Of a stretch of 64,000 bases of DNA, positions 29,119 through 42,094 are shown piece by piece. The translations under genes were made by a program, and so were the position numbers. Location of the stretch: positions 2,848,001 through 2,912,000 of the forward strand of contig CBDBEV010000001.1 in assembly GCA_965204535.1 (NCBI GenBank). The letters run 5' to 3'. Every line of letters starts with the position of its first letter. The first letter of the stretch is position 1. The notes under the pieces are model-generated. The model had not been told where the DNA came from. It did no database searches and was given only the letters and a program-made list of their open reading frames with translations. Source of the DNA: a bacterium (GTDB taxonomy: Bacteria > UBA8248).

Positions 29119-29901
29119 ATGAACGCCCCTGAATCGTCGGATATGAAGGATAAGGTCGTCCTGGTGACCGGCGGCTCGCGCGGCATCGGCGCGGCCATTG
29201 CGAGGCGATTCGCGCGCGAGGGCGCGCATCTGGCCTTGAACCACAGGGACGGGAAGGGGAGGTCCGTCCAGATGGCGGACGAACTTTGCCGCGAGTTTGA
29301 GGCCGCCGGAGGACGGGCGGTCGCCATCCCTGCGGACATTTCGAAAAAAGACGCCGTAAAGGCCATGTTCGCGCAGGTGGAAGAGGAGTTCGGGCGACTC
29401 GACGTGCTCGTCCTGAACGCGGCGCGCGCGCCCTTCAAGCCGTGGGAGAAGCTCCTGGAGCGCGACCTCAAGCTCTTGGTGGAGACGAATTTTCTGGGCA
29501 ACGTCTTCTGCCTGCAGGGGGCGCTTCCGTTGCTCTCGCGCCGGGGCGGGACCGTCGTGTTCATATCGAGTCTGGGGGGCCGCTTTTATCACCCCGAATA
29601 CCCCCTGGGGCCCATGAAGGCGGCCATGGAGGCGGCGGTCACGCATTGGGCGGAAAGTTTCGAGGAGAGAGGCGTATCGGTCAACGCCGTCTGCGCGGGG
29701 CTGGTGAAGACCGATTCGTTCAAGACGCTGCGCATGGTTCAGCCGGAGCTGGAAGAGCTGCCCGAGCGTTATTTCGTGACGCCGGAAGAAGTGGCGGAAT
29801 CGGTCTATTTTCTCGCGGGCGCCGGCGCGGCTTCCATACGCGGGCAGACCCTCGTGGTCGACAGGGGACTCAGCAACCGCCTGAACCGCCCCCCGGGGTG
29901 A
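29119..29901 (+). CDS. SDR, FabL-like enoyl-ACP reductase
   Basis: TGGSRGIG, LNAA, ISSLG..Y...Y.....KAAME, similar to B. subtilis FabL pattern; first gene of FAS-like cluster. Confidence 0.7.
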   Translation: MNAPESSDMKDKVVLVTGGSRGIGAAIARRFAREGAHLALNHRDGKGRSVQMADELCREFEAAGGRAVAIPADISKKDAVKAMFAQVEEEFGRLDVLVLNAARAPFKPWEKLLERDLKLLVETNFLGNVFCLQGALPLLSRRGGTVVFISSLGGRFYHPEYPLGPMKAAMEAAVTHWAESFEERGVSVNAVCAGLVKTDSFKTLRMVQPELEELPERYFVTPEEVAESVYFLAGAGAASIRGQTLVVDRGLSNRLNRPPG

Positions 29902-30036
29902 TGGAGCGGGGGAGATTCCTCGGAGAAGGTTGATTTTCGTTCCCCTCCTTGGTTGTATACGCTTGGATGCGTGGGGGAGGTTTGCATGCGTCCCTACACG
30001 AGGACGGGCCGCGCTTGATCGTTACAGAGGACTGCT

Positions 30037-30600
30037 ATGTCGCAAAACCTGGTATCAGACGATACGATTTTGGAAGAGGTGAAAAAGGCGATCGCCCACA
30101 CCACGGGAATCGACGAGGAAACCATCGAGCCGGACAGCTCCCTGGTGGACGACCTGGGCGTCTTGTCGCTCGATTTTCTGGACGTGAACTTTCGCCTCGA
30201 GCAGGTGTTCGGCATCAAGATGGCGCGCAATTTCGTTCTGGAACACGTGGAGGAGATGTTCGGCGAAGGCGTGGCCATCAACGAGGAGAGCGAGGTGACG
30301 GAAACAGGTGTCGAGGTCTTGAAGCTGCGCTTGAACGAAGCCGCTGCGGATCTCGAGCCCGGCATCCCCGTGGATGAGCTGCCGGCCCTCGTTACGCCGA
30401 AGACGCTGGCGGGCGCGGTGCGCGACGTACTGAACTGCCTGCCCGAGAAGAGCCCGGCGGGGGCGGACTGGAAGGCCGAGGATGGAACGCGCATCGTATG
30501 CGCGCAGACGAACGAACCCGCCGCTTTGCCCGGCGGCGATGAAGTGGTCCAGAACTGGCTGAACCGGGTGCAGGAAGAAAGGGGCCTCTTCTCCTCCTGA
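30037..30600 (+). CDS. Atypical long acyl carrier protein
   Basis: SSLVDDLGVLSLDFLDVNFRLEQVFGIK ACP core; 187 aa with insertion and C-terminal extension. Confidence 0.82.
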   Translation: MSQNLVSDDTILEEVKKAIAHTTGIDEETIEPDSSLVDDLGVLSLDFLDVNFRLEQVFGIKMARNFVLEHVEEMFGEGVAINEESEVTETGVEVLKLRLNEAAADLEPGIPVDELPALVTPKTLAGAVRDVLNCLPEKSPAGADWKAEDGTRIVCAQTNEPAALPGGDEVVQNWLNRVQEERGLFSS

Positions 30601-30644
30601 GGCCGCAGGCTTCATTCAAGCCGTTTTACCGGGAGAACATGTGA

Positions 30645-31955
30645 ATGGCCGGTAACGACAGGCGGGTCGTGATCACCGGATACGGGGCGATGACGCCCCT
30701 GGGCAAGGACGTCGCCTCCACGTTCGACGCCGCTCGTGAGGGACGCTCGGGAATCGACGTGGTCCGCCGCTTCGACCCCGAAAAGCTACCCTGCCGCATT
30801 GCCGGCGAGGTGGACGACGAGTGGATAGCCTCGCAGGAGAACGGTGCTGCGCGCAGGCTCGATAAATTCTCCACCCGGGGCGTGCGGATGATGCGCGTGG
30901 CCGTATCCCAGGCGGCGCAGACGGCGCGCTTGGGCGAAGTTCCCGAGAGAAAGCGAGTCGGCGTCGCGCTCGGCTCCCACGGCGATCACCCCCATGTCGA
31001 AGAGTTGCTCCGCATCTTCCCCTACTGGAAGCCGGAAGGCAGCGATCCCTTACAGGGCGGGTGGGACATCGAAGGCCTCAAAAGCCGCGGCGCCTATGAT
31101 CTGATGACGTTTTTCAGAAGAAAGTCCGACGTGGCGACTTCGGTCGTCGCCTTGGATTTCGACTGCCGGGGTCCCATGGTCTCCATCTGCTCGGCTTGTG
31201 CGGCGGGGGCGCAGGCGATCGGCGAGTCGGTGCGCCTCATCCGCGACGCGAAGGCGGACGTTATGGTGGCGGGCGGCTGCGAGGCGCCCATCACATACGT
31301 GGGGTTTCTCGGGTTCGTCCTGCTCACCGCGCTGGTGGAGAGATACGAAACCCCGCAGAGCGCGTCCCGTCCCTTCGACAGGAGGCGGAACGGCTTCGTG
31401 ATGTCCGAAGGCGCGGGCGCGATGATACTCGAGAGCTACGAACACGCGCGTGCACGGGGCGCCGAGGTCCTCGGCGAAGTGCTCGGCTACGGCGATTCAT
31501 CGGATGCGTTTCGCATCACCGACATGCACCCTAAGGGTCTCGGCGCGGTGTTCGCCATGAAAAAGGCGATCGAGGATGCGCGAATCACGCCCGATCAAGT
31601 CGAATACGTCAACGCGCACGGCACCTCGACGCCCAAGAACGATTCCACCGAAACCAGGGCCATCAAGGAGGTGTTCGGCGCCCACGCGGAGAAGATGCCC
31701 GTCAGTTCCAACAAGTCCATGATCGGCCACACCATCGGCGCGGCGGGAGCCGTCGAAGCGATTCTGGCCGTGGAGGGGATGCGCCGCTCGGAGATTCTGC
31801 CGACCATCAACTACCAGAACCGCGATCCGAAGTGCGACCTCGACTACGTGCCCAACGAGACGAGGACGCAGGCCCATCGCGTGGCTCTCTCCAACAGCTT
31901 CGGTTTCGGCGGGCAGAACGCCTGCCTTTGCCTGGGTGGTCCCGAGATCGCGTGA
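30645..31955 (+). CDS. Beta-ketoacyl-ACP synthase (FabF-like), catalytic triad intact
   Basis: SACAAG, NAHGTST, KSMIGH, NSFGFGG. Confidence 0.92.
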   Translation: MAGNDRRVVITGYGAMTPLGKDVASTFDAAREGRSGIDVVRRFDPEKLPCRIAGEVDDEWIASQENGAARRLDKFSTRGVRMMRVAVSQAAQTARLGEVPERKRVGVALGSHGDHPHVEELLRIFPYWKPEGSDPLQGGWDIEGLKSRGAYDLMTFFRRKSDVATSVVALDFDCRGPMVSICSACAAGAQAIGESVRLIRDAKADVMVAGGCEAPITYVGFLGFVLLTALVERYETPQSASRPFDRRRNGFVMSEGAGAMILESYEHARARGAEVLGEVLGYGDSSDAFRITDMHPKGLGAVFAMKKAIEDARITPDQVEYVNAHGTSTPKNDSTETRAIKEVFGAHAEKMPVSSNKSMIGHTIGAAGAVEAILAVEGMRRSEILPTINYQNRDPKCDLDYVPNETRTQAHRVALSNSFGFGGQNACLCLGGPEIA

Positions 31956-33142
31956 ATTTTCCGTCCATTCCGATCACCGGCGTCGGCCTCGTAACGGCGG
32001 CGGGTCGAGGCGCCCAACCCGCCTGGGAGGCCCTTTGCGCGGGCCGCTCCCTCCTTGCTCCGGATGCTGATCCCGAACTCGCTGGCTTCCCCCCCATCGA
32101 AACAGCGCAGTGCGCGCGAATCGACCCCGAATCGGTCGGCGCGTATCGACGTGCGGCGAGAATCATGGGCCACCATACCCACATGCTCCTGGCGGCGGTT
32201 CAAGATGTGATGGCCGACGCCCCTGCCGACCCGGAGATGACGGAGGAAGATATCGCCTTTTTCGCTGGCATGGACTCTGTCGATCCGGATAAAGACGATT
32301 TGGTAGGCGCAGTGAGGGAATCGGAAGATCTGGTGGATTTGGGGCATTTCTTCAGCGAGGGGATGGACGCCATCCCCCCGCTTTGGCCGCTCGGCATGTT
32401 GAACGCGATAGCTTTCAGCCAGGCGGCGATTCAGCACAGGTGGCGGGGCGAGAACGCCGTTTTCAGCACGGGCCCGGAGGCGACGGCGCGCGCCCTCTGC
32501 GAGGCGGCGGACTCGGTCGGATCAGGCAAGTCGAGGCTCGCTCTGTGCGCCGGCGTAAGCGGGGTGGTTTCCGCAAGAATGCTGGCCCGCGCGAAGCGGC
32601 GGGGCGCGTGGCCCGCTGCGGGCGGACTCGGAGAGGGCGCGGGCGTGATTCGCTTCGAGAAGACCGAAGTTGCCCATTCGTCCAAAATTCTTGGCTGGTT
32701 CAAGGGCCAATCTTCTGTGCGCGCGTTAAAAAAAAGAGGCGGCCTCGTCCGGGCAATTCAAGAGTCGGCCCAGGGCGCGCTCGCGTGTGCCGGTCTCAAG
32801 CCCGAGGGAGTGGACCTTCTCGTGATTCATGGGGAGGGGGAATCTCGGGCGGATGGCGCCGAGGCGGAAGCGGTTTCCGCCGTTTTCGGCGGCCACAAGC
32901 CTTGGGGGCTTGCGACGAAGGGCGTATTCGGCCACCTTTGGGGGGGAAGCCCGGCGCTGGACCTGATTATGGCGATGAAAGCCCTGGCCGAAGGCGCGGC
33001 GCCCCCATCTCCCGCATCGGAGAAGGAATTATTCCGGGATGCGGCAGATGGCTCCAGGCGGGATGAGCTCCGAAACGCGCTGGTGCTTCTCCAGGGCTTC
33101 GACGGCGTATGCTCGGGGCTGGTGGTGGGAAAAGGCGCTTGA
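31952..33142 (+). CDS. Ketosynthase-like protein lacking catalytic Cys (CLF-like)
   Basis: ITGVGLVT, LGEGAG, KGVFGH; STGPEA at the SAC position; GTGA overlap with upstream stop. Confidence 0.78.
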   Translation: MNFPSIPITGVGLVTAAGRGAQPAWEALCAGRSLLAPDADPELAGFPPIETAQCARIDPESVGAYRRAARIMGHHTHMLLAAVQDVMADAPADPEMTEEDIAFFAGMDSVDPDKDDLVGAVRESEDLVDLGHFFSEGMDAIPPLWPLGMLNAIAFSQAAIQHRWRGENAVFSTGPEATARALCEAADSVGSGKSRLALCAGVSGVVSARMLARAKRRGAWPAAGGLGEGAGVIRFEKTEVAHSSKILGWFKGQSSVRALKKRGGLVRAIQESAQGALACAGLKPEGVDLLVIHGEGESRADGAEAEAVSAVFGGHKPWGLATKGVFGHLWGGSPALDLIMAMKALAEGAAPPSPASEKELFRDAADGSRRDELRNALVLLQGFDGVCSGLVVGKGA

Positions 33143-33157
33143 CGGGAGAACGGGAAA

Positions 33158-33610
33158 TTGCGGTTTCTCTTTTTCGATCAGATCAAGGAGATGGTGCGCG
33201 GCGAGCGGATCGTGGGCGTCAAGACGTTTCCGCTCTCAGAAGCATATTTGAACGCCCATTTCCGGCGCGCGCCCCGGGTGCCCGGCTCGATCCTCATCGA
33301 GGCGATGGCGCAGATCACGGGGTGGCTCGTAATCTACACCTATGATTTCAAGACCTCGTGCGTCATCTCGCTCATCGACGACGTGGAGGTGGCGAACGAC
33401 CTGCGACCGGGCGTTACCGTGGAGATTCATGGCGAGATAATCGACACGAACGAACGGGCGAGCCTGTGCCGCGCGCGTATCGAAAAAGACGGTGTCGCTG
33501 TGGCCAAAGCCGAGCGGTTCGTGTATCCCCACTTTCCCAATGACGATCCAGAAAGCCTCAAGGAGCGCTTTAGAAGCTACGGCTGGCTGGCGTTCGAGGA
33601 GACGGCATGA
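33158..33610 (+). CDS. FabZ/FabA-like dehydratase
   Basis: RFLFFDQI, HFRRAPRVPGSILIEAMAQ. Confidence 0.85.
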   Translation: MRFLFFDQIKEMVRGERIVGVKTFPLSEAYLNAHFRRAPRVPGSILIEAMAQITGWLVIYTYDFKTSCVISLIDDVEVANDLRPGVTVEIHGEIIDTNERASLCRARIEKDGVAVAKAERFVYPHFPNDDPESLKERFRSYGWLAFEETA

Positions 33611-34872
33611 GCGCGCAGGTATTCATCACCGGCCTCGGCATGGTGACCTCTTTGGGCGCCGACGTGGAGACTTGCTGGCGGCGGGCGCTGGCCGGTGAAT
33701 CGGGCCTCGCGCCGATCACGTCTTTCGACGCGAAAGCGCTGCCCGTCGCCGGAGCGGGCGAGGTTTCTGAGGAGACGCTCCGCGCCATCCGGGAGAGGCT
33801 TCCCGAGGAATATGCGGGCGAGGGGGAGCGCAGGGTGTTGTTCGCGCTCGACGCCGCGCAGAACGCGATGACGGACGCCGGGATGCGCCCCGGCGATTAT
33901 GCCCCCGAGCGCGCGGGCGTGGTGATGGGGACCGGGCTGAGCAGCTACCGGCTGGAGGATTTCGCCGCCTGGGCGGACCCTGAAAACGGCTTCGACGCCG
34001 TCCGCTTCGCTGAAGAGCTTGAGATGACGCAAGTCTCCGGCTACTTCAACAACCCGCCCGAGCGGGCGACCTCCCTGATGGCGGAGTGGTTCGAACTCGC
34101 CGGTCCCACCGGCACGATCACCTCCGCCTGCGCGGCGGCGGGTCAGGCGATTGGCCTCGGGATGCGCATGATCCGAAGGGGCGAGGCGGACGTGGTTCTT
34201 TGCGGCGGGGCCGATTCGATGATCCATCCCGTCGGGATGGCCATATTCCTCCTGCTGGGCGCGGCGTCCAAATCGAAAGACCCCATCTGCCGTCCTTTCG
34301 ACAGAAGACGCTCCGGCCTCGCCGTGGGCGAAGGGTCGGGCGTGGTGGTTCTGGAGTCGCAAGACCATGCGCGCGCGCGGGGCGCTGCGCCCTACGCCGT
34401 TCTATCGGGCTACGGCGCGAGCATGGACGCGCACCAGGTGACGGCCCCGCACCCGGCGGGCCGGGGCGCCGTTCGGTCGATGAGCGAGGCGATGGAAGAT
34501 GCGGGCCTGGCTCCTGATGATGTCGCCTACGTCAACGCGCACGGCACGGGCACGAAACTGAACGATCCGGTCGAGACCAGGGCGATTCGCGAGGTGTTCG
34601 GCGCGCGGGCGGATGCGCTGGCGGTGAGTTCGTCCAAATCCATGATCGGGCATCTCATCGCCGCCTGCGGCGCGCCCGAGTTCATCTTCACGGCCTTGAG
34701 CGTCGCGCGCGATATCGTGCATCCTACGACGTGCCTTGAGAACCCGGACCCGAAGTGCGATCTCGACTACGTGGCCGGGGGGGCGAGGGAGATGCCCGTG
34801 CCCGCCGCCATCACGAATTCCTTTGGTTTCGGCGGGCAAAACGCCACCTTGCTCGTGAGAAAGGCGGCCTAG
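33607..34872 (+). CDS. Beta-ketoacyl-ACP synthase (FabF-like), catalytic triad intact
   Basis: SACAAA, NAHGTGT, KSMIGH, NSFGFGG. Confidence 0.92.
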   Translation: MSAQVFITGLGMVTSLGADVETCWRRALAGESGLAPITSFDAKALPVAGAGEVSEETLRAIRERLPEEYAGEGERRVLFALDAAQNAMTDAGMRPGDYAPERAGVVMGTGLSSYRLEDFAAWADPENGFDAVRFAEELEMTQVSGYFNNPPERATSLMAEWFELAGPTGTITSACAAAGQAIGLGMRMIRRGEADVVLCGGADSMIHPVGMAIFLLLGAASKSKDPICRPFDRRRSGLAVGEGSGVVVLESQDHARARGAAPYAVLSGYGASMDAHQVTAPHPAGRGAVRSMSEAMEDAGLAPDDVAYVNAHGTGTKLNDPVETRAIREVFGARADALAVSSSKSMIGHLIAACGAPEFIFTALSVARDIVHPTTCLENPDPKCDLDYVAGGAREMPVPAAITNSFGFGGQNATLLVRKAA

Positions 34873-34889
34873 ATGAGAGGTGATACGGA

Positions 34890-35642
34890 ATGAAAATCGA
34901 TTTGAGCGGAAAAATCGCGCTGGTGACCGGAGGCGGGCGGGGCATCGGGCGCGCCTGCTGCACGGCCCTGGCCGAGGCGGGGGCTTCGGTGGCGGTCAAC
35001 TACAGCCGCTCGGCGGAGGCCGCCGAGGAGGTAAAGGGGGAGATCGAAGCGGCCGGCGGGCAGGCGAATACCTACCAGGCCGACGTCTCCTCTTTCGAGG
35101 ACGTATCGGCGATGTTCGAGCAGGTAAAAGAGGATTTCGGCACGCTCGATATTCTCGTCAACAACGCGGGCGTGATACAGGACGGCTTGCTGCTCACCAT
35201 GAAGCCCGCAGGCTGGCGCAAGGTGCTCGGCGTGAGCCTGGACGGCGCTTACCACTGCACGAAGGCGGCCGGCGAGATCATGCTCCGGAAGCGCTCCGGC
35301 AAGGTGATCAGCATCTCCTCCGTCATGGGGGTTTCGGGCGGGGCCGGGCAGACGAACTACGCCTCCGCCAAGGCGGGCATCATCGCCTTCATGCGCGCCT
35401 GCGCGGCGGAGATGGGAAAGCGGGGAATCCAGTTCAACACCATATTGCCGGGCATGATCGTCACCGACATGAGCGAGCGCGTGCGCGAGAAGGGCGGCGA
35501 CGTGATTATGGGGCGCATACCGGCGGGCCGCTTCGGCGAACCGGAGGACGTGGCCAGGCTCGTGGTGTTCCTGGCGTCCGCGGAATCGGATTACATCAAC
35601 GGACAGGCGATAGCCGTGGACGGCGGTCTGCTCACGGGCTGA
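34890..35642 (+). CDS. fabG: 3-oxoacyl-ACP reductase (FabG-like)
   Basis: TGGGRGIG, NNAG, GQTNYASAKAG, PGMIVTDM. Confidence 0.85.
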   Translation: MKIDLSGKIALVTGGGRGIGRACCTALAEAGASVAVNYSRSAEAAEEVKGEIEAAGGQANTYQADVSSFEDVSAMFEQVKEDFGTLDILVNNAGVIQDGLLLTMKPAGWRKVLGVSLDGAYHCTKAAGEIMLRKRSGKVISISSVMGVSGGAGQTNYASAKAGIIAFMRACAAEMGKRGIQFNTILPGMIVTDMSERVREKGGDVIMGRIPAGRFGEPEDVARLVVFLASAESDYINGQAIAVDGGLLTG

Positions 35643-35660
35643 GCGCGGGGGATATTCGGG

Positions 35661-36077
35661 ATGCAGCTGTACCAGGGGGTGGATTTGGTGGAGGTCGCGC
35701 GCTTGAAGGAGGCCTATGAGCGCCACGAGGCGTTCGGCGAGGACGTGTTCACCGAAGCCGAGCGGGCGTATTGCCTGAAGCGCCGGAACCCCTATCCCCA
35801 CTTCGCGGCCCGCTTCGCGGCGAAAGAAGCCTGCCTCAAGGCATTCGGCCTCGGCATTTCCGAGCCGGGCGGGCTGGGCGGCAGGGGGCGTTTGCGCGAG
35901 ATCGAGGTGGAATCGATGGCTTCGGGCAAACCCACGCTCAAACTGAGCGGCTCGATGGAGCGCATGAGCGCGCGAAAGAAGATCACGCAGTCCACCATTT
36001 CGATGAGCCATACGCTCGATCTGGCGGTGGCCCAGGTGATCCTCCTGGGCGAGGACGCGCCGGAAGAAGCTGATTAA
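35661..36077 (+). CDS. acpS: Holo-ACP synthase
   Basis: GVDLVE, FTEAE, AARFAAKEA, GKP, ISMSH. Confidence 0.92.
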   Translation: MQLYQGVDLVEVARLKEAYERHEAFGEDVFTEAERAYCLKRRNPYPHFAARFAAKEACLKAFGLGISEPGGLGGRGRLREIEVESMASGKPTLKLSGSMERMSARKKITQSTISMSHTLDLAVAQVILLGEDAPEEAD

Positions 36078-36089
36078 GGAGTCCTTGGT

Positions 36090-36551
36090 TTGAGATATAT
36101 GCTCGTGGACAGGGTGACGGCGTGGGAGGCGGGGGTCTCCATCCAGGGGGTGAAGAACGTCACGATGAGCGAGGATTTTCTGGAGTTCCATTTCCCGCGG
36201 TTTCCCGTCATGCCGGGCGCGCTGATATTCGAGGCGCTGGTGCAGCTGGCAGGCTGGCTCGAAGCGGCGGAATCCGATTTCACCCGGTGGATTCTTTTGG
36301 AAAAGGTTCGAAGCGTCAGGTACTATGGATTCGCCTTTCCGGGGGATCAGGTCCTCCTGAACGTGGAGGCGCGGGGAGAGGAAGAAGGTCTCAAGAACTT
36401 CAGGGGCGTTGCCACCGTGGAGGGCGAGCGTCGGGTGGTCGCCGATTTTGGCGGAAAGGCGGCGCCGCTCGCGGATTATGAGGATCCCGAGGAGCAGCGC
36501 CATCATTTTCGTGTTCTCGGACGCGAGATTCGGTTGAGCCAGGCGGGATGA
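36090..36551 (+). CDS. FabZ-like dehydratase
   Basis: LVDRV, KNVTMSE, HFPRFPVMPGALIFEALVQ, PGDQ. Confidence 0.88.
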   Translation: MRYMLVDRVTAWEAGVSIQGVKNVTMSEDFLEFHFPRFPVMPGALIFEALVQLAGWLEAAESDFTRWILLEKVRSVRYYGFAFPGDQVLLNVEARGEEEGLKNFRGVATVEGERRVVADFGGKAAPLADYEDPEEQRHHFRVLGREIRLSQAG

Positions 36552-36554
36552 GCG

Positions 36555-37853
36555 ATGCGAGGCGAGGAAGTCTGGATTACGGGCGTGGGTTTGCTGACTT
36601 CCATAGGCGAGAATGCCGGGGAAAACTGGGAGTCGCTTTGCGCCGGAAAATGCGGGGTCGCCTGTCATCCAAGCGAGGATAACGGCTCTCTTCCGGATAA
36701 TTTCGCCTACCATGGCGCAATCCCCGGCCATGAAGACCCGCCCGAGGTGCCGCCCAAACTCGCGAGCCAGCGCAAATTCCTGAACAGAAGCTCCATCCTG
36801 GGGCTTTACGCCGCCGCCGAGGCGGTGGCCTGCTCTGGTCTCGACATGGGAGAGGTGGCGCCCGAGAGAAAGTCCCTCTACGTCGGTTCGGGCGATTTCA
36901 CCAGGGTGGGCTATGTGGATTTCTATGCCGCGCTCAAACAAACGGCCGGCGAGGCGTGGGACGCGCCCGAACCCGCCTCCCTCAACGAGGCGTCGCTCCA
37001 CAGGGTAAGCCCTTTTTTCCTGCTCGAGGGATTGCCCAACAATCTTTTCAGCTATCTCTCGGGCATCTACGAATTCATGGGGCCGAACGGCAGTTTTTCC
37101 AGCCTTTCATCCTGCGGCGCGCAGGCGCTCGAGAATTGCGACCGCGTGCTTCGCTTCGGCGAGGCCGACGTCGGCCTCGTCGTGGGCTGCGGGAGTTGGG
37201 CGCACCCCATGGTGCTCCTGGAACTCGACGGGCTGGGCATTCTCTCCCGGGCGAAAGAGGGGGCCGAGTCGTTCCGGCCCTTCGACAGGAGGCGCGATGG
37301 ATTCTTCCCCGGAGAGGGCGCCGCCGCCCTGGTGCTCGAGAGCGCCGAATCCGCCTGTGCGCGGGGCGCGAAGCCCCTGGGCCGCGTTCTGGGGACGGCG
37401 AACTGCCAGGAATACTCCTCTGAGCGCTATATTCCCGTTCCCACCGGCGCGGTGCGCCATTCGGTGGAATCGGCGGTGGCCGAGGCGGGCGTCACGAGCG
37501 ATGATCTGGCCTTCATCCTTCCCCACGGGAGTGCGACGCCCCAGGGAGACGCGGGCGAATTGTCCGCCTTGCTGGAATACGGCGATAAGGTCAAGGGCCC
37601 GATTCCGCTCGCCGGCTGGAAGCCCTATACGGGACACATGGGCTCCGCCAGCGATTTGGCCGAGATCGTGCTGGGACTCTCTGCCCTCAATGAGGGCCGC
37701 CTTCCCCCCACGCCGGGCCTTGAGCAAAAAGACGATGCCTTCGAGGCCCTCCACATCCCCACCGAAGAATGCGCCGTCTCGGGGGCCGCGTTCCTGTCCC
37801 TGAGTCACGGCATCGGCGGGCAATCCTCCGCAACCATCGTCGCCGCGCAGTGA
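36555..37853 (+). CDS. Ketosynthase-like protein, catalytic Cys replaced by Ser
   Basis: SFSSLSSCGAQAL aligns with SICSACAAGAQAI; RPFDRRRDG, PHGSAT, KPYTGH retained. Confidence 0.82.
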   Translation: MRGEEVWITGVGLLTSIGENAGENWESLCAGKCGVACHPSEDNGSLPDNFAYHGAIPGHEDPPEVPPKLASQRKFLNRSSILGLYAAAEAVACSGLDMGEVAPERKSLYVGSGDFTRVGYVDFYAALKQTAGEAWDAPEPASLNEASLHRVSPFFLLEGLPNNLFSYLSGIYEFMGPNGSFSSLSSCGAQALENCDRVLRFGEADVGLVVGCGSWAHPMVLLELDGLGILSRAKEGAESFRPFDRRRDGFFPGEGAAALVLESAESACARGAKPLGRVLGTANCQEYSSERYIPVPTGAVRHSVESAVAEAGVTSDDLAFILPHGSATPQGDAGELSALLEYGDKVKGPIPLAGWKPYTGHMGSASDLAEIVLGLSALNEGRLPPTPGLEQKDDAFEALHIPTEECAVSGAAFLSLSHGIGGQSSATIVAAQ

Positions 37854-38836
37854 ACAAATCCGCAGAATCCACCAAGAGAAAACGCAGCAAAGACAAGGGC
37901 GCGTTTCACCAATGGGTGGAATACGCCCTGCTCGTTTCGTTTCTGTGGTTGATCCGCCTGCTGCCCTATGGTGTCTGCCGCGCGGTTTCCGTTTTGATAG
38001 GGGAGGCGATTTTCCGCTTCGCCCCCAGGAGAAGGCGCATCGCGCGCGCCAACCTGCGCATCGCGTTCCCCGAACTCAATGAAGCGCAGCGCTCCGTTCT
38101 GGCGAGGCGCAGTTGCCGTTCGTTTATTCTCACCTGCCTGGAGGGAGCGAAGTTTCTGACCCGCTTCGATTTGCGACGCGCCGAGAAAACGGTGCGCGAG
38201 ATCGTGGACGAGGCGGAGGAGACAATAGATAAGGTGCGCGTGATTCACGAAGATGCGGGCGGCTGCGTGTTCGTCGTGCCGCATCTGGGGAACTGGGAAT
38301 TCCTCGCCCATGCCGGCGCGCTGGCGGGAATTCCGCTCACCATCCCGGTGCGTCCCCTGGACAATCGAAAGCTCGAAGCCTCGCTGTATGCAATGCGCGC
38401 ATCCTCCGGACAGGAGATTCTTTCGAAGAAAAACGCCTTCTTTCACCTGCGCGAGGCGCTGCGCAAGGGCCGTTCGGTGGCGATTCTGGCGGATCAGAAC
38501 GCGGGTGGCGAGGGAATCGACGCGCCGTTTTTCGGCAAGCCCGCCAGGACGACGCTCGCTCCCGCAGCCCTCGCGGTTCTCTACAACCGGCCCATTGTCC
38601 TGATCTCGTGTCTCAGAAAAGGCGGTGGCCGGCGCTATGAGGTCTTGCTCAGCGAGCCGATAGCGCCCGATATGAACGCGCAAAGCGCCAAAAAAGAAAT
38701 CGAGAGGCTCACGATGGCGGTGAACGAGGAGACGGAAAATTTTATTCGAAAAGGGCCGGAGCAGTACTTATGGATCCATGACAGGTGGAAACTCACCAAA
38801 AGCCAGGGACCGTCCCGGTGGGCCGATTCAAGTTGA
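37850..38836 (+). CDS. Lipid A/lysophospholipid acyltransferase (LpxL/HtrB family)
   Basis: ARANLRIAFP, HLGNWE, RPLDN, LADQ, FFG, PEQYLWIHDRWK; GTGA-coupled to upstream gene. Confidence 0.9.
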   Translation: MNKSAESTKRKRSKDKGAFHQWVEYALLVSFLWLIRLLPYGVCRAVSVLIGEAIFRFAPRRRRIARANLRIAFPELNEAQRSVLARRSCRSFILTCLEGAKFLTRFDLRRAEKTVREIVDEAEETIDKVRVIHEDAGGCVFVVPHLGNWEFLAHAGALAGIPLTIPVRPLDNRKLEASLYAMRASSGQEILSKKNAFFHLREALRKGRSVAILADQNAGGEGIDAPFFGKPARTTLAPAALAVLYNRPIVLISCLRKGGGRRYEVLLSEPIAPDMNAQSAKKEIERLTMAVNEETENFIRKGPEQYLWIHDRWKLTKSQGPSRWADSS

Positions 38837-39235
38837 AGCTTCAGGGGAGGATACGGTTTCTTTCAGATGCTTGAAGAAGGGAACCCCCAGTTTTTCGAGT
38901 TTCGCCTCGAGCTTTTCCGTGCAGTCGCAATCGCCGCAGACGGGATAGCCTTCGCAATCTTCAGGTTTGCGGGCGAAGCGCACGTCGATCTCCTCGAAAT
39001 ACGCCTCCCAGTAGGGTAGTTCCTCATACAGCTCATAACCCGGCCCGAACGCCTCGCGGCAGTAGCAGACCTCGAGCCAGCGAACCTGGCCTTTCTCGGT
39101 GAGCCTCGCCTCTTTCATGCACTTGAGAAACGTCCGGTGCGCGATGGAGCCTCGCCCGAGTTCGCCCGATTCGATGGCTTCGAGCAGGGCGGCGCTCTTG
39201 CCCTCGATGACTTTTCCGCGCACGAGATAACGCAT
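38828..39235 (-). CDS. Cys-rich hypothetical protein
   Basis: GGAGG RBS; EVCYC and CEGYPVCGDCDC motifs. Confidence 0.75.
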   Translation of the reverse strand: MRYLVRGKVIEGKSAALLEAIESGELGRGSIAHRTFLKCMKEARLTEKGQVRWLEVCYCREAFGPGYELYEELPYWEAYFEEIDVRFARKPEDCEGYPVCGDCDCTEKLEAKLEKLGVPFFKHLKETVSSPEAST

Positions 39236-39377
39236 GGAACCTCCACGCTTTTTTCATGAACCCTTCATTCGATTGTAACATACACGATATGATTCATGTA
39301 TAGATTGCCGGATGCTTCGGAGCATCGACGGCGTAAGGCGGCAGGGCGAGGAGCCCATGAACCCTGGGATAGGCGGG

Positions 39378-40838
39378 ATGACGGACAAACCAATCGAAAT
39401 CACCATGGTGGCGAGCGAGATGTTCCCCTTCGCCAAATCGGGCGGGCTGGGCGACGTCATCGGTGCGCTGCCTTCGGCCCTGGCGAGGTTGGGCCACAAG
39501 GTCTGCGTCTACCTGCCCGCGTACCGTGCTGCTCTCAATGAATATGACCCCGGTTCTCCCGCGCAGGTCGCAGACGTCTTCGCCGAGGCGCGCTGCGAGG
39601 TGTTCTCGCTCGAACACGAGGGGGTTTCGGTCAGACTCGTCGCCGCGGATGATCTGTTCGATCGGGATGGATTCTACGGAGACGCGCGCGGAGCGTTTCC
39701 CGACAACGCGGAGCGCTTCGCCCGTTTCGCCAGAGGCGCGCTCTCCCACATGGAGAGCGAAAAAGCGTATCCGTTCATCATCCACTGCCATGACTGGCAA
39801 AGCGCCCTGATCCCGCCCTTGCTGCAGTATCGCCGCGCTGACGAAACGAAATGGCGCGGGGTCTCCAGTGTTTTCACGGTTCACAACCTGGCGTACCAGG
39901 GCCGCTTCCACCGGGATGATTTCGCGCACACTTGTCTGCCCGATGAAATGATGGGCATGGAGGGGCTTGAGTTTCACGGCGACATCAACTTCATGAAGGG
40001 CGGCATCCTGTTCAGCGGAGCGGTCTCCACCGTGAGCGAGCGTTATGCGCAGGAGATGCTGACGGAAGAGCAGGGAGAAGGGCTCGAAGGAGTGGTCGCT
40101 CTCAGAAGGGATTCTTTGTTCGGCATCATGAACGGCATCGACGATGTGGTCTGGAATCCCGAAAGCGACCCCCACGTTCCGGCGCCGTTCTCGATCGCGC
40201 GCCCGGAGGGCAAGGCGAAGTGCAAGGCGGCGCTTCAGGAGGAATTGAGGCTGGACGCAGGCGCGGAGGGGCCTTTGTGCGTCGTCGTCTCGCGGCTGGC
40301 GCATCAGAAGGGAATCGACCTGATCCTCGAAACGATGGATGAATGGATGAAGCTGGGCGTAAGCCTGGCCGTTCTGGGAACCGGCGAGGAGGCGTTGGAA
40401 GGTGGCCTCGCCGAAGCCGCTTCGACCCATCCGGGCCGGGTGGCCTTCGTGCCCGCCTATGACGAGGCGCTCTCCCACCGCATGTACGCAGGCGGCGACG
40501 TCCTGCTCATGCCCTCACGCTATGAGCCTTCGGGCCTGAACCAGCTGTACGCCATGCGCTACGGCGCCCTTCCTTACGTGCGGCGGGTCGGCGGACTTGC
40601 GGACTCGGTGATTTCATCCCCAACCCCCGAAGCGGACTCGGACACCGGCTTCCATTTCGACGCGTTCGCCCCGGCCGATTTCCTCACCGGGATGGAGAGG
40701 ATTTGCCGGGTGTTTTTGGATCAGGGCCTTTGGCGTATGATGATGCGCAACGCGATGGAGAAGGACTCCGGTTGGGACGGCGTCGCGCCCCGCTACGTCG
40801 GTTTGTACGAAAAGGCGATGCGCCCGCAGCCGCGTTGA
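39378..40838 (+). CDS. glgA: Glycogen synthase
   Basis: KSGGLGDV, HCHDWQ, TVHNLAYQG, SRLAHQKG, MPSRYEPSGL; start may be 39357. Confidence 0.95.
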   Translation: MTDKPIEITMVASEMFPFAKSGGLGDVIGALPSALARLGHKVCVYLPAYRAALNEYDPGSPAQVADVFAEARCEVFSLEHEGVSVRLVAADDLFDRDGFYGDARGAFPDNAERFARFARGALSHMESEKAYPFIIHCHDWQSALIPPLLQYRRADETKWRGVSSVFTVHNLAYQGRFHRDDFAHTCLPDEMMGMEGLEFHGDINFMKGGILFSGAVSTVSERYAQEMLTEEQGEGLEGVVALRRDSLFGIMNGIDDVVWNPESDPHVPAPFSIARPEGKAKCKAALQEELRLDAGAEGPLCVVVSRLAHQKGIDLILETMDEWMKLGVSLAVLGTGEEALEGGLAEAASTHPGRVAFVPAYDEALSHRMYAGGDVLLMPSRYEPSGLNQLYAMRYGALPYVRRVGGLADSVISSPTPEADSDTGFHFDAFAPADFLTGMERICRVFLDQGLWRMMMRNAMEKDSGWDGVAPRYVGLYEKAMRPQPR

Positions 40839-40864
40839 GACGAATCGAACAGAGGAGCCGGATA

Positions 40865-42094
40865 TTGGATTCGCGCGATCCCAGAGTCATATCTTTCGTC
40901 ATGGCGGGCGGCGCCGGAAACAGGCTCCACCCCCTCACGGTCGCGCGCGGCAAGCCGGCCGTGCCGTTCGGTTCGAAATACCGCATCATCGACTTCGTGC
41001 TGAGCAACCTGGTGAACTCGGGCTATCAGTCCATCTACGTGCTGGTGCAGTACCTGGCGCAATCGCTGATCGAGCATTTGAGGCGCTCGTGGAACATCAG
41101 CGGAACGCTCGGCAAGAATTTCGTGACGGCCGTTCCGCCCCAGCAGCGCGCAGGCGAGTTCTGGTTCAAGGGCACGGCCGATTCCATCCATCAGAACAGA
41201 AACCTGGTGACCGACAATGCGCCCGACATCGTGCTGGTGTTCGGGGCGGACCACATCTACCGCATGGACGTGAGCCAGATGGTTCGCTTTCACCTCGAAA
41301 GCGGGGCGGACGCGACGATATCGGCCCTGCCCGCGCCGGTCGAAGACGCCCGGGAATTCGGCGTGCTGGCCGTGGACGAGGAGGGACGGGTGGAGCGTTT
41401 TGACGAAAAGCCCTCCCGCCCCCGCCCCATGCCGGGCGACCCCTCGCGCGCGCTGTGCTCGATGGGAAATTACGTGTTTTCCTCCCAGGTGCTGATGGAT
41501 GCGCTCATCAGCGATGCGGCGCGTGAGGGGGAGCACGACTTCGGGCGAACGATCATCCCCGCTCTTCTCGGCGAGCGTAAAAAACTCTACGCCTACGATT
41601 TCATGAAAAACGAGATTCCGGGGGTTCGGCCCACCGAGGAAAGAGGCTACTGGCGCGACGTGGGCACCATCAAGAGCTACTGGGAGACGCAGATGGACCT
41701 TTTGGGGGAGACGCCGCTCCTTGACTTGAGCAACCCCGACTGGCCGATTCACACCAGCGCCTATCCGGGGCCGGGCAGCCGCATCGTGTCCACGCAGGTG
41801 GAAGACGCCTTGATCGGAGAGGGGTGCCAGATTGTGGGGGCGCGGATCGAGCGCTCCGTCATCGGCCGCGGCGTGGTAATCGAAAAAGGGGCGGAGATCG
41901 TCGATTCCATCGTCATGGACCACACCCACATCGGGGCGGGGGCGCATCTGCAAAAAGCGATTGTCGACAGGTTCAACCAGATAGAAGCGGGCGCTTCGGT
42001 GGCGATTGAAAGGGCCGATTCCTTCCCTGGCGCCGTCTCCGACCCTTCCGGCATCATCGTCCTGCCGCGCGGGTTCACCCGGCCCGTCATTTGA
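40865..42094 (+). CDS. glgC: Glucose-1-phosphate adenylyltransferase
   Basis: AGGAGNRL, KPAVPFG, GTAD, DHIYRMD, SMGNY, YWRDVGT; TTG start after GAGGAG. Confidence 0.95.
   Translation: MDSRDPRVISFVMAGGAGNRLHPLTVARGKPAVPFGSKYRIIDFVLSNLVNSGYQSIYVLVQYLAQSLIEHLRRSWNISGTLGKNFVTAVPPQQRAGEFWFKGTADSIHQNRNLVTDNAPDIVLVFGADHIYRMDVSQMVRFHLESGADATISALPAPVEDAREFGVLAVDEEGRVERFDEKPSRPRPMPGDPSRALCSMGNYVFSSQVLMDALISDAAREGEHDFGRTIIPALLGERKKLYAYDFMKNEIPGVRPTEERGYWRDVGTIKSYWETQMDLLGETPLLDLSNPDWPIHTSAYPGPGSRIVSTQVEDALIGEGCQIVGARIERSVIGRGVVIEKGAEIVDSIVMDHTHIGAGAHLQKAIVDRFNQIEAGASVAIERADSFPGAVSDPSGIIVLPRGFTRPVI

Follow-up and report, generated by a model that had tools for sequence, protein, structure and literature searches.

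Gene content and conservation of the locus

The window analysed here is a stretch of 64,000 nucleotides from a bacterial genome (GenBank assembly GCA_965204535.1, designated G000), and the system in question is a cluster of eleven plus-strand open reading frames (ORFs; g1 to g11) at window positions 29119-38836 with the parts of a type II fatty acid synthase (FAS II) and an LpxL-family acyltransferase at the end. This cluster is, on balance, likely to be a second type II line, in which a dedicated and probably long acyl chain is assembled on an enlarged acyl carrier protein (ACP) and then handed to lipid A by the LpxL-family enzyme. The ORF list, Pfam and NCBIfam agreed on the order, coordinates and families of all the genes, in keeping with the original prediction of eleven co-directional, partly overlapping genes; FabD and FabH, which that prediction had reported missing, were indeed absent from the cluster. 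The genes are:

g1, 29119..29901, + strand: short-chain dehydrogenase/reductase (SDR), best NCBIfam match FabL (NF005975) at 184.6 bits (cut-off 328)
g2, 30037..30600, + strand: enlarged ACP of 187 aa (PF00550), with Ser44
g3, 30645..31955, + strand: ketosynthase (KS), Cys185-His325-His362 intact
g4, 31952..33142, + strand: KS fold resembling a chain-length factor (CLF), without the Cys and with relaxed His conservation
g5, 33158..33610, + strand: FabZ-like dehydratase (PF07977), His34 and Glu48
g6, 33607..34872, + strand: second KS, Cys175-His312-His349 intact
g7, 34890..35642, + strand: FabG (FabG-like SDR)
g8, 35661..36077, + strand: AcpS-type phosphopantetheinyl transferase (PPTase; PF01648)
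g9, 36090..36551, + strand: second FabZ-like dehydratase, His34 and Glu48
g10, 36555..37853, + strand: KS fold, Ser185-His324-His361 invariant
g11, 37850..38836, + strand: LpxL-family acyltransferase (PF03279, Lip_A_acyltrans), His145 and Glu150

Overlaps of 4 bp were found at three junctions (31952-31955, 33607-33610, and 37850-37853, where the starts of g4 at 31952 and g11 at 37850 are chosen starts), and the remaining intergenic gaps were 3-44 bp, except for the 135 bp between g1 and g2. The GC content of the cluster was like that of its surroundings (0.61-0.66), and a promoter/terminator scan of the cluster was at chance level (1 versus 1.5; 12 versus 10.3). A public contig was identical to positions 29162-39300 (0 differences); as it may derive from the source sample, it is not independent. 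In one RNA run a fraction of 0.06 of the words was found, with contigs in short pieces at 90-95%, which is not evidence of expression. Conservation was examined through orthologues defined by thresholds of sequence identity; as the loci overlap and are related, the counts given throughout are not independent of one another. Neighbouring pairs were adjacent in 41/42 to 50/50 of the loci holding both genes, a gene order far beyond chance. The g1-type reductase adjoined the ACP in 68/70 loci and its Tyr161 and Lys167 were invariant (69/69 each), and g1 is likely the enoyl-ACP reductase of the system. The catalytic His and Glu of the dehydratases were likewise retained in all orthologues of g5 (58/58 each) and g9 (60/60 each), with g9 adjoining g10 in 56/58 loci.

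A search with the g2 ACP returned 56 loci, including (i) 32 at 67-98% identity that were labelled Nitrospinota or carried no name; and (ii) 24 at 44-55% from Nitrospirota, Syntrophobacteraceae, NC10, delta proteobacteria, Acidobacteriota, and one Chloroflexota, the last a doubtful label since the carrier genome has LpxC. The ACP was present in 35/41 genomes of the host's own family and in 0/9 genomes of other families in the same phylum, as well as in 14/301 sampled genomes of the phylum of G014 and, with a broader profile, 21/401 of the phylum of G031. Forty-nine loci spanned g3 to g9, of which 33 contained all of g4-g8, and no conserved tailoring gene was found inside or beside the cluster among the loci listed. 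The cluster is thus conserved across several phyla and is undescribed in the literature searched (subscription papers lay outside its scope); no gene-for-gene match was found there, and the earlier impression that this exact architecture is uncharacterised held.

Ketosynthase-fold proteins and the enlarged carrier protein

The active sites of the four KS-fold proteins were compared with the genome's own FabF and across orthologues. Cys-His-His was retained in g3 (71/71, 69/69, and 69/69) and g6 (51/51, 50/50, and 50/50), and these two KSs are therefore predicted to be able to condense. The g4 orthologues displayed Pro, Ala, Ser or Gly at the Cys position and kept the His residues in 43/49 and 40/48 cases, and g4 looks like a chain-length factor. 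In g10, the Ser and both His residues were each found in 57/57 orthologues; judged by these residues, the protein is under catalytic constraint, though predicted to be unable to condense in the usual manner. KS proteins with a Cys-to-Ser change decarboxylate malonyl-ACP, and g10 is likely a malonyl-ACP decarboxylase for priming. Its Ser-His-His site is shared with the PksF-type proteins, which we take to be Cys-to-Ser ketosynthase decarboxylases of beta-branching cassettes. Against the PksF model (NF005490, cut-off 445) g10 scored 129 bits, lower than against FabF (182), and no HMG-CoA synthase or enoyl-CoA hydratase genes of a beta-branching context were found near it. In PMC9006962, a Cys-to-Gln change in a KS is likewise described to give malonyl-ACP decarboxylation.

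The pairing of these proteins was approached through their co-occurrence. Both g4 and g6 were present in 42/49 loci and both absent in 7/49, with neither ever found singly; the block g4-g5-g6-g7 was relocated in G029; and four Syntrophobacteraceae drafts showed only g3, g10 and one further KS. In addition, the g6 orthologue was not found in G016, and G031 is too fragmentary for g6 to be called absent. Together, the co-occurrence, the block move and the Syntrophobacteraceae drafts suggest the pairs g6-g4 and g3-g10 rather than g3-g4. The predicted g3-g10 complex had an ipSAE of 0.94, whereas none of three controls exceeded 0.00; the model runs shared at least 89% of contacts, and partner confidence (predicted local distance difference test, pLDDT) was at least 88. 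The mark applied to this score was reached by 51/78 solved pairs and 2/108 mismatched pairs, and the value for this modelled complex appears to reflect likeness to well-represented solved KS dimers, not partner choice. A quick KS tree (67 rows from 24 chosen loci, with matches under 330 aa or with stops dropped) resolved four clades, each with a support of 100 and with the branching order among them left open; none grouped with the Sinorhizobium meliloti KS proteins, both rhizobial rows being long branches.

The g2 carrier was modelled by AlphaFold2 with a pLDDT of 92.1 and a predicted template modelling score of 0.88. Its core is AcpXL-like (43% identity over 76 aa to S. meliloti AcpXL), to which an insertion of about 45 aa after helix II and a C-terminal domain are added. 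The best Protein Data Bank match was the specialised ACP RPA2022 of R. palustris, both by sequence (E 3e-10) and by fold (E 1e-3); Foldseek gave no match for the ACP model at E ≤ 0.001 and none for the extension. The C-terminal domain carried CxxC...CxxC in 74/116 and 55/70 full-length homologues of two homologue sets and in 0/34 of the closest homologues, the g2 lineage having lost three of the four Cys. This four-Cys domain is a probable zinc ribbon that has decayed in the g2 lineage; no literature on a zinc-ribbon ACP was found within the scope given above. The family is wide, with 531 representatives at E ≤ 1e-10, and includes forms of about 130 aa without the C-terminal domain. A distant clade (profile match E 5.6e-42) occurs in clusters of the order ACP-KS-CLF-KS-CLF-aminotransferase-FabG-SDR-membrane protein, which is also the published gene order of koreenceine (PMC6498172), and more distant enlarged ACPs (L114, L115, L120-L122, and L084) lie in other KS/CLF clusters with no LpxL in the stretches examined; the ACP family thus serves several pathways. 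An Atlas search returned only unnamed ACP clusters, and plasmid searches gave nothing with the g2 ACP and only KS matches at about 30% with g10.

The acyltransferase, lipid A and apparently shared housekeeping genes

The genome holds lpxD, lpxA, lpxB, kdtA, lpxK, and lpxC, and g11 is its only PF03279 protein; exactly one such protein was found in 39/41 family genomes. The His and Glu of g11 were conserved in 53/53 orthologues, and g10 and g11 were adjacent in 49/49 loci with both genes, even where the cluster was split over two places. Lipid A gene neighbours were detected in 4/74 loci scanned, including (i) g11 followed by lpxB-kdtA-lpxK in two Nitrospirota genomes, G024 and G021; and (ii) a cluster start following lpxD-fabZ-lpxA in L032 and L042, with two of these four loci coming from the same genome, G024. 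Two further loci had a partial lpxB about 2 kb downstream. The best NCBIfam matches were the AcpXL model for g2 and the LpxXL model for g11, both models having been verified with S. meliloti proteins. In an LpxL tree (42 chosen rows, quick method), g11 grouped at a support of 100 with the cluster copies of Nitrospirota, Syntrophobacteraceae, NC10 and Acidobacteriota, in a clade whose members all come from clusters or their remnants, apart from one protein with no known context, while 7/8 outgroup lpxL formed a separate clade (support 98). These outgroup-family genes were 30-32% identical to g11 and lay beside lipid A genes in 5/8 loci fetched. A faster LpxL branch (1.15) in the genus labelled g8 (not the gene g8) was set aside, as its rows are compositionally biased. 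Lipid A, named as an acceptor in the original prediction, is the most likely acceptor of g11.

Among the PF03279 proteins there are also acyltransferases of phosphatidylinositol mannosides and lysophospholipids, as well as an enzyme (31% identical to g11) from an aryl-polyene-type cluster, and the chain could be made as proposed with g11 acylating another membrane lipid, such as a glycolipid or lysophospholipid. We consider this quite unlikely, as g11 is the sole family member in a genome from which the ancestral lpxL clade of the phylum is absent, and as it adjoins lpxB-kdtA-lpxK in two genomes.

Further lipid A genes were noted. Outside the window, a 729-codon frame (G000:C1:1362812-1365001; L088:1813-3999) with a receiver domain, a sigma54-type AAA region and a Fis helix-turn-helix ends in the single LpxC of the genome, and LpxC frames of roughly 710-755 aa were seen again in most of the 51 phylum genomes. 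A Gfo/Idh/MocA oxidoreductase follows lpxA (G000:C1:415924-416895), and the aminotransferase of the lipid A operon in L032 has a 43% match at a separate place (C1:1081459-1082547). These two are presumably GnnA/GnnB-like, hinting at a diamino-sugar in the lipid A backbone. Immediately downstream of the cluster, window positions 38828-39235 (- strand) encode a 135-aa Cys-containing protein without a Pfam or NCBIfam match, which stays tail-to-tail with lpxL in family members, the deletion genomes described below among them, and positions 39312-42094 (+ strand) hold ORFs like glycogen synthase and ADP-glucose pyrophosphorylase, as judged from their translations only.

The canonical fatty acid genes were located elsewhere in the genome, as the operons plsX-fabH-fabD-acpP-fabF (G000:C1:380342-385295) and lpxD-fabZ-lpxA, and the eleven-gene cluster is therefore a second system and not, as had been named as a refuting outcome, the only FAS genes. 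The core fab operon was found without fabG in 3/3 family genomes (this genome, G070, and G079) and with fabG in 3/3 outgroup genomes. Within the genome, g7 was the top TIGR01830 match among 41 (281 bits) and is likely also the housekeeping ketoreductase of the family. PF01648 was found at two places, g8 and a 292-aa frame beside a large polyketide synthase (PKS) locus, with g8 the only PPTase of AcpS size. The latter locus (G000:C2:2404921-2419140; L090), where a 3482-aa frame with domains of KS and ACP type is accompanied by two free ACPs and by the second PPTase, looks like a type I PKS. From these assignments, the fabG, acpS and lpxL of the cluster appear to serve as housekeeping genes of the cell as well.

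Natural deletions were consistent with this sharing. Six family genomes lacked the ACP, of which four were examined (G070, G079, G080, and G082), with G048 (67% complete) and G081 left out. In 4/4, fabG-acpS-lpxL was kept at the same locus and the other eight genes were lost, with G070 retaining a 55-aa scrap of g9 beside the three genes. The eight-gene module in turn needs FabD, which is supplied by the core operon. Given this requirement and the shared FabG, AcpS and LpxL, the cluster is not self-contained, and the description of it as a self-contained accessory unit had to be given up. On the simplest reading, the family would have acquired the cluster, and its fabG and lpxL would have displaced older copies; replacement of these ancestral genes appears to lock the three-gene remnant in.

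The deletion genomes bear on two other explanations. First, the cluster could be the organism's main FAS II: g7 and g8 probably serve the core cycle, and g1 could do so too, as (i) FabI was not found in the genome, nor in any of 51 genomes with an Escherichia coli query in a search without a positive control; (ii) FabK gave nothing above the cut-off in the genome and was found in 0/4 family genomes at 1e-20; and (iii) FabV was found in 0/5 genomes in a search in which no control matched. However, canonical fabH, fabD, acpP, fabF and fabZ exist elsewhere, the cluster lacks fabH, fabD, a canonical acpP and fabF as a set, and near-complete relatives live without the module; this explanation is very improbable and, for the module as a whole, refuted by the deletion genomes. 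In three of these (G070, G079, and G082), g1 was not found anywhere at E ≤ 1e-35 and the FabI, FabK and FabV searches revealed no recognisable enoyl-ACP reductase; such genomes may use an unrecognised reductase or fatty-acid uptake. Second, the product of the module could go elsewhere, with fabG-acpS-lpxL as housekeeping passengers and g11 acting on ordinary acyl-AcpP. The clean deletion of the module while the three genes stay fits such an arrangement, as do homologous ACPs with two KS/CLF pairs that drive koreenceine-like clusters without LpxL. Nonetheless, we regard it as unlikely, since no other release, ligase, transaminase or export gene accompanies the cluster, the g11 clade is confined to the copies described above, and the g10-g11 linkage holds in every locus with both genes across several phyla, whereas g7 and/or g8 are absent from the cluster in 11/49 loci.

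Relationship to known systems and proposed pathway

The closest functional comparison is the rhizobial cluster for very-long-chain lipid A, acpXL-fabZXL-fabF2XL-fabF1XL-(adhA2XL)-lpxXL (PMC5613085, PMC11901934), represented here by the S. meliloti locus L092. Both have a specialised ACP near the start, a dedicated dehydratase, an active KS with a Cys-less KS, and an LpxL-family enzyme last; the present cluster holds this set with five extra genes. The acyltransferase also persists without the ACP in both, and retention of lpxL in the deletion genomes mirrors rhizobial acpXL mutants, in which LpxXL transfers C16:0/C18:0 instead (PMC5613085). In contrast to the rhizobial system, there are eleven genes here, with two KS pairs, two dehydratases, their own FabG and AcpS, an SDR-type reductase in place of a zinc-binding dehydrogenase, and an ACP twice as long as AcpXL; the Ser of g10 is replaced by Glu in FabF2XL. 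The scores against the rhizobial models fell below each cut-off: 50.8 bits for g2 against AcpXL (NF005079, cut-off 83; 189.5 for S. meliloti AcpXL), 341.8 for g3 and 266.6 for g6 against FabF1XL (NF005076, cut-off 629), 71.8 for g10 against FabF2XL (NF005084, cut-off 320), where g4 had no match at 1e-10, and 135.8 for g11 against LpxXL (NF005120, cut-off 273). The g11 protein is 27% identical to S. meliloti LpxXL and falls in another clade, LpxXL lying on a long branch. Thus, the rhizobial analogy drawn at the outset was upheld for function and not for descent, as no component reached its family cut-off and neither the KS nor the LpxL tree grouped the proteins with S. meliloti. On these comparisons, the cluster is best read as a non-orthologous counterpart of acpXL-lpxXL with extra machinery.

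The koreenceine cluster kecA-K of Pseudomonas koreensis, a non-canonical type II PKS for which two KS/CLF heterodimers were proposed (PMC6498172), has several features in common with g1-g11: the two ACPs belong to one enlarged four-Cys family (profile match 100%, E 5.6e-42, 182 columns), and both clusters have two proposed KS/CLF heterodimers (the pairing here being a prediction), FabG and a second SDR. The related cluster PP_2777-2784 of P. putida has an ACP termed unusual in its predicted structure (PMC12490732). The KecF aminotransferase-reductase and the KecIJK export genes are absent from the present cluster and its flanks, and two dehydratases, AcpS and LpxL are found instead. The kec-like loci compared (L132-L138) were named from gene order and Pfam, not by alignment to the P. 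koreensis record.

Two further analogies failed on gene content. Anammox cluster I (amxACP, amxFabZ, amxFabF2/amxFabFmut; 10.64898/2026.05.19.726425, PMC10139942) has a FabF-like heterodimer with one defective triad and malonyl decarboxylation able to start chains; however, the defective amx subunit lost both His residues that g10 keeps, and no special sequence closeness was detected. Identity with it was rejected on the scores and on the lack of a phytoene-dehydrogenase-like or B12 radical SAM gene (see also PMC2649909). Aryl polyene clusters of the ApeO/ApeC type, judged from the annotation of L093, share KS/CLF, two dehydratases, FabG and a PF03279-like acyltransferase; they were rejected as the cluster has no starter ligase, MMPL, LolA, glycosyltransferase or methyltransferase and does have a chain-saturating reductase. 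An aryl-polyene, ladderane-type or other polyene pathway could be argued from the pairs of KS and Cys-less KS and the two dehydratases known in such systems (10.64898/2026.05.19.726425; Skermanella cluster), but no AMP ligase, MMPL, LolA, methyltransferase, phytoene-dehydrogenase-like or radical SAM gene is present in or conserved around the cluster, the FabL-like reductase stays beside the ACP in nearly every locus, and g6 scored 277 bits with 9s5h, less than the 313 bits obtained with ordinary FabF. We give such a pathway hardly any credence.

For the dedicated lipid A line, a pathway can be proposed. AcpS (g8) would activate Ser44 of g2, and FabD of the core operon would load it with malonyl. 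The g3-g10 heterodimer would start the chain and elongate it, with g10 perhaps decarboxylating malonyl-ACP in place of FabH, a role we favour by a narrow measure; otherwise, the primer would come from ordinary acyl-ACP. The g6-g4 KS/CLF pair would run a second, dispensable elongation stage, each round would be reduced by g7, g5/g9 and g1, and g11 would transfer the chain to Kdo2-lipid IVA as a secondary acyl group. The chemistry is read from what was observed, namely gene content, active-site residues, synteny, the sole-copy status of g11 and the retention of fabG-acpS-lpxL; a carrier that is enlarged and AcpXL-like, together with two stages of elongation, suggests a long chain.

Several points weigh against this proposal. 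For the pairing, (i) the complex score cannot separate g3-g10 from g6-g10, in line with the dimer likeness noted above; (ii) the usual KS-CLF arrangement by gene order would pair g3 with g4 (PMC9006962); and (iii) the seven g4/g6 co-loss loci represent at most three lineages, in one of which (G029) the g4-g5-g6-g7 block moved and is not gone. For the acceptor, 70/74 loci had no lpxA/B/D/K or kdtA beside g2 or g11 within the examined stretch, four g11 orthologues (L212-L215, flanks of about 1.5 kb) were separated from the rest of the cluster, no orthologue of g11 was obtained from G025, and the persistence of g11 without the module also fits no functional link. PF03279 matched in the monoderm control Corynebacterium as well, so the family has other acceptors, and the same ACP family serves koreenceine-like clusters without LpxL. 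LpxC was found in 33/37 ACP-carrying genomes and not in the other four, which are drafts. As all components fall under the rhizobial cut-offs, the C26-C30 (omega-1)-hydroxy fatty acid of rhizobial lipid A cannot be transferred as a chain length. There was no cultured isolate among the 56 named ACP loci.

In its strongest form, the proposal would be an independently evolved lipid A decoration route in at least four phyla, in which a two-stage line with two KS heterodimers, a Ser-His-His starter and a zinc-ribbon ACP adds a chemically new acyl chain. We hold this to be possible though doubtful; if true, the chain would surpass all lipid A substituents described so far in length or in functionalisation, and its hosts would be uncultured marine, sediment and probable symbiotic bacteria. 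Very-long-chain lipid A was studied mainly in alphaproteobacteria and Legionella, where the long chain makes the membrane more rigid and helps the bacteria to live within their hosts (PMC5613085). The assembly logic is already known. A non-orthologous system in several uncultured phyla would point to more than one origin of this strategy, and a lipid biomarker specific to the lineage would be expected. The cluster also suggests what the enlarged ACP family is likely to do and provides a compact model for two KS heterodimers sharing one ACP. Furthermore, it offers an example of how an acquired cluster appears to become fixed once its own fabG and lpxL have replaced the resident genes, for which the natural deletion lineages provide a ready comparison.

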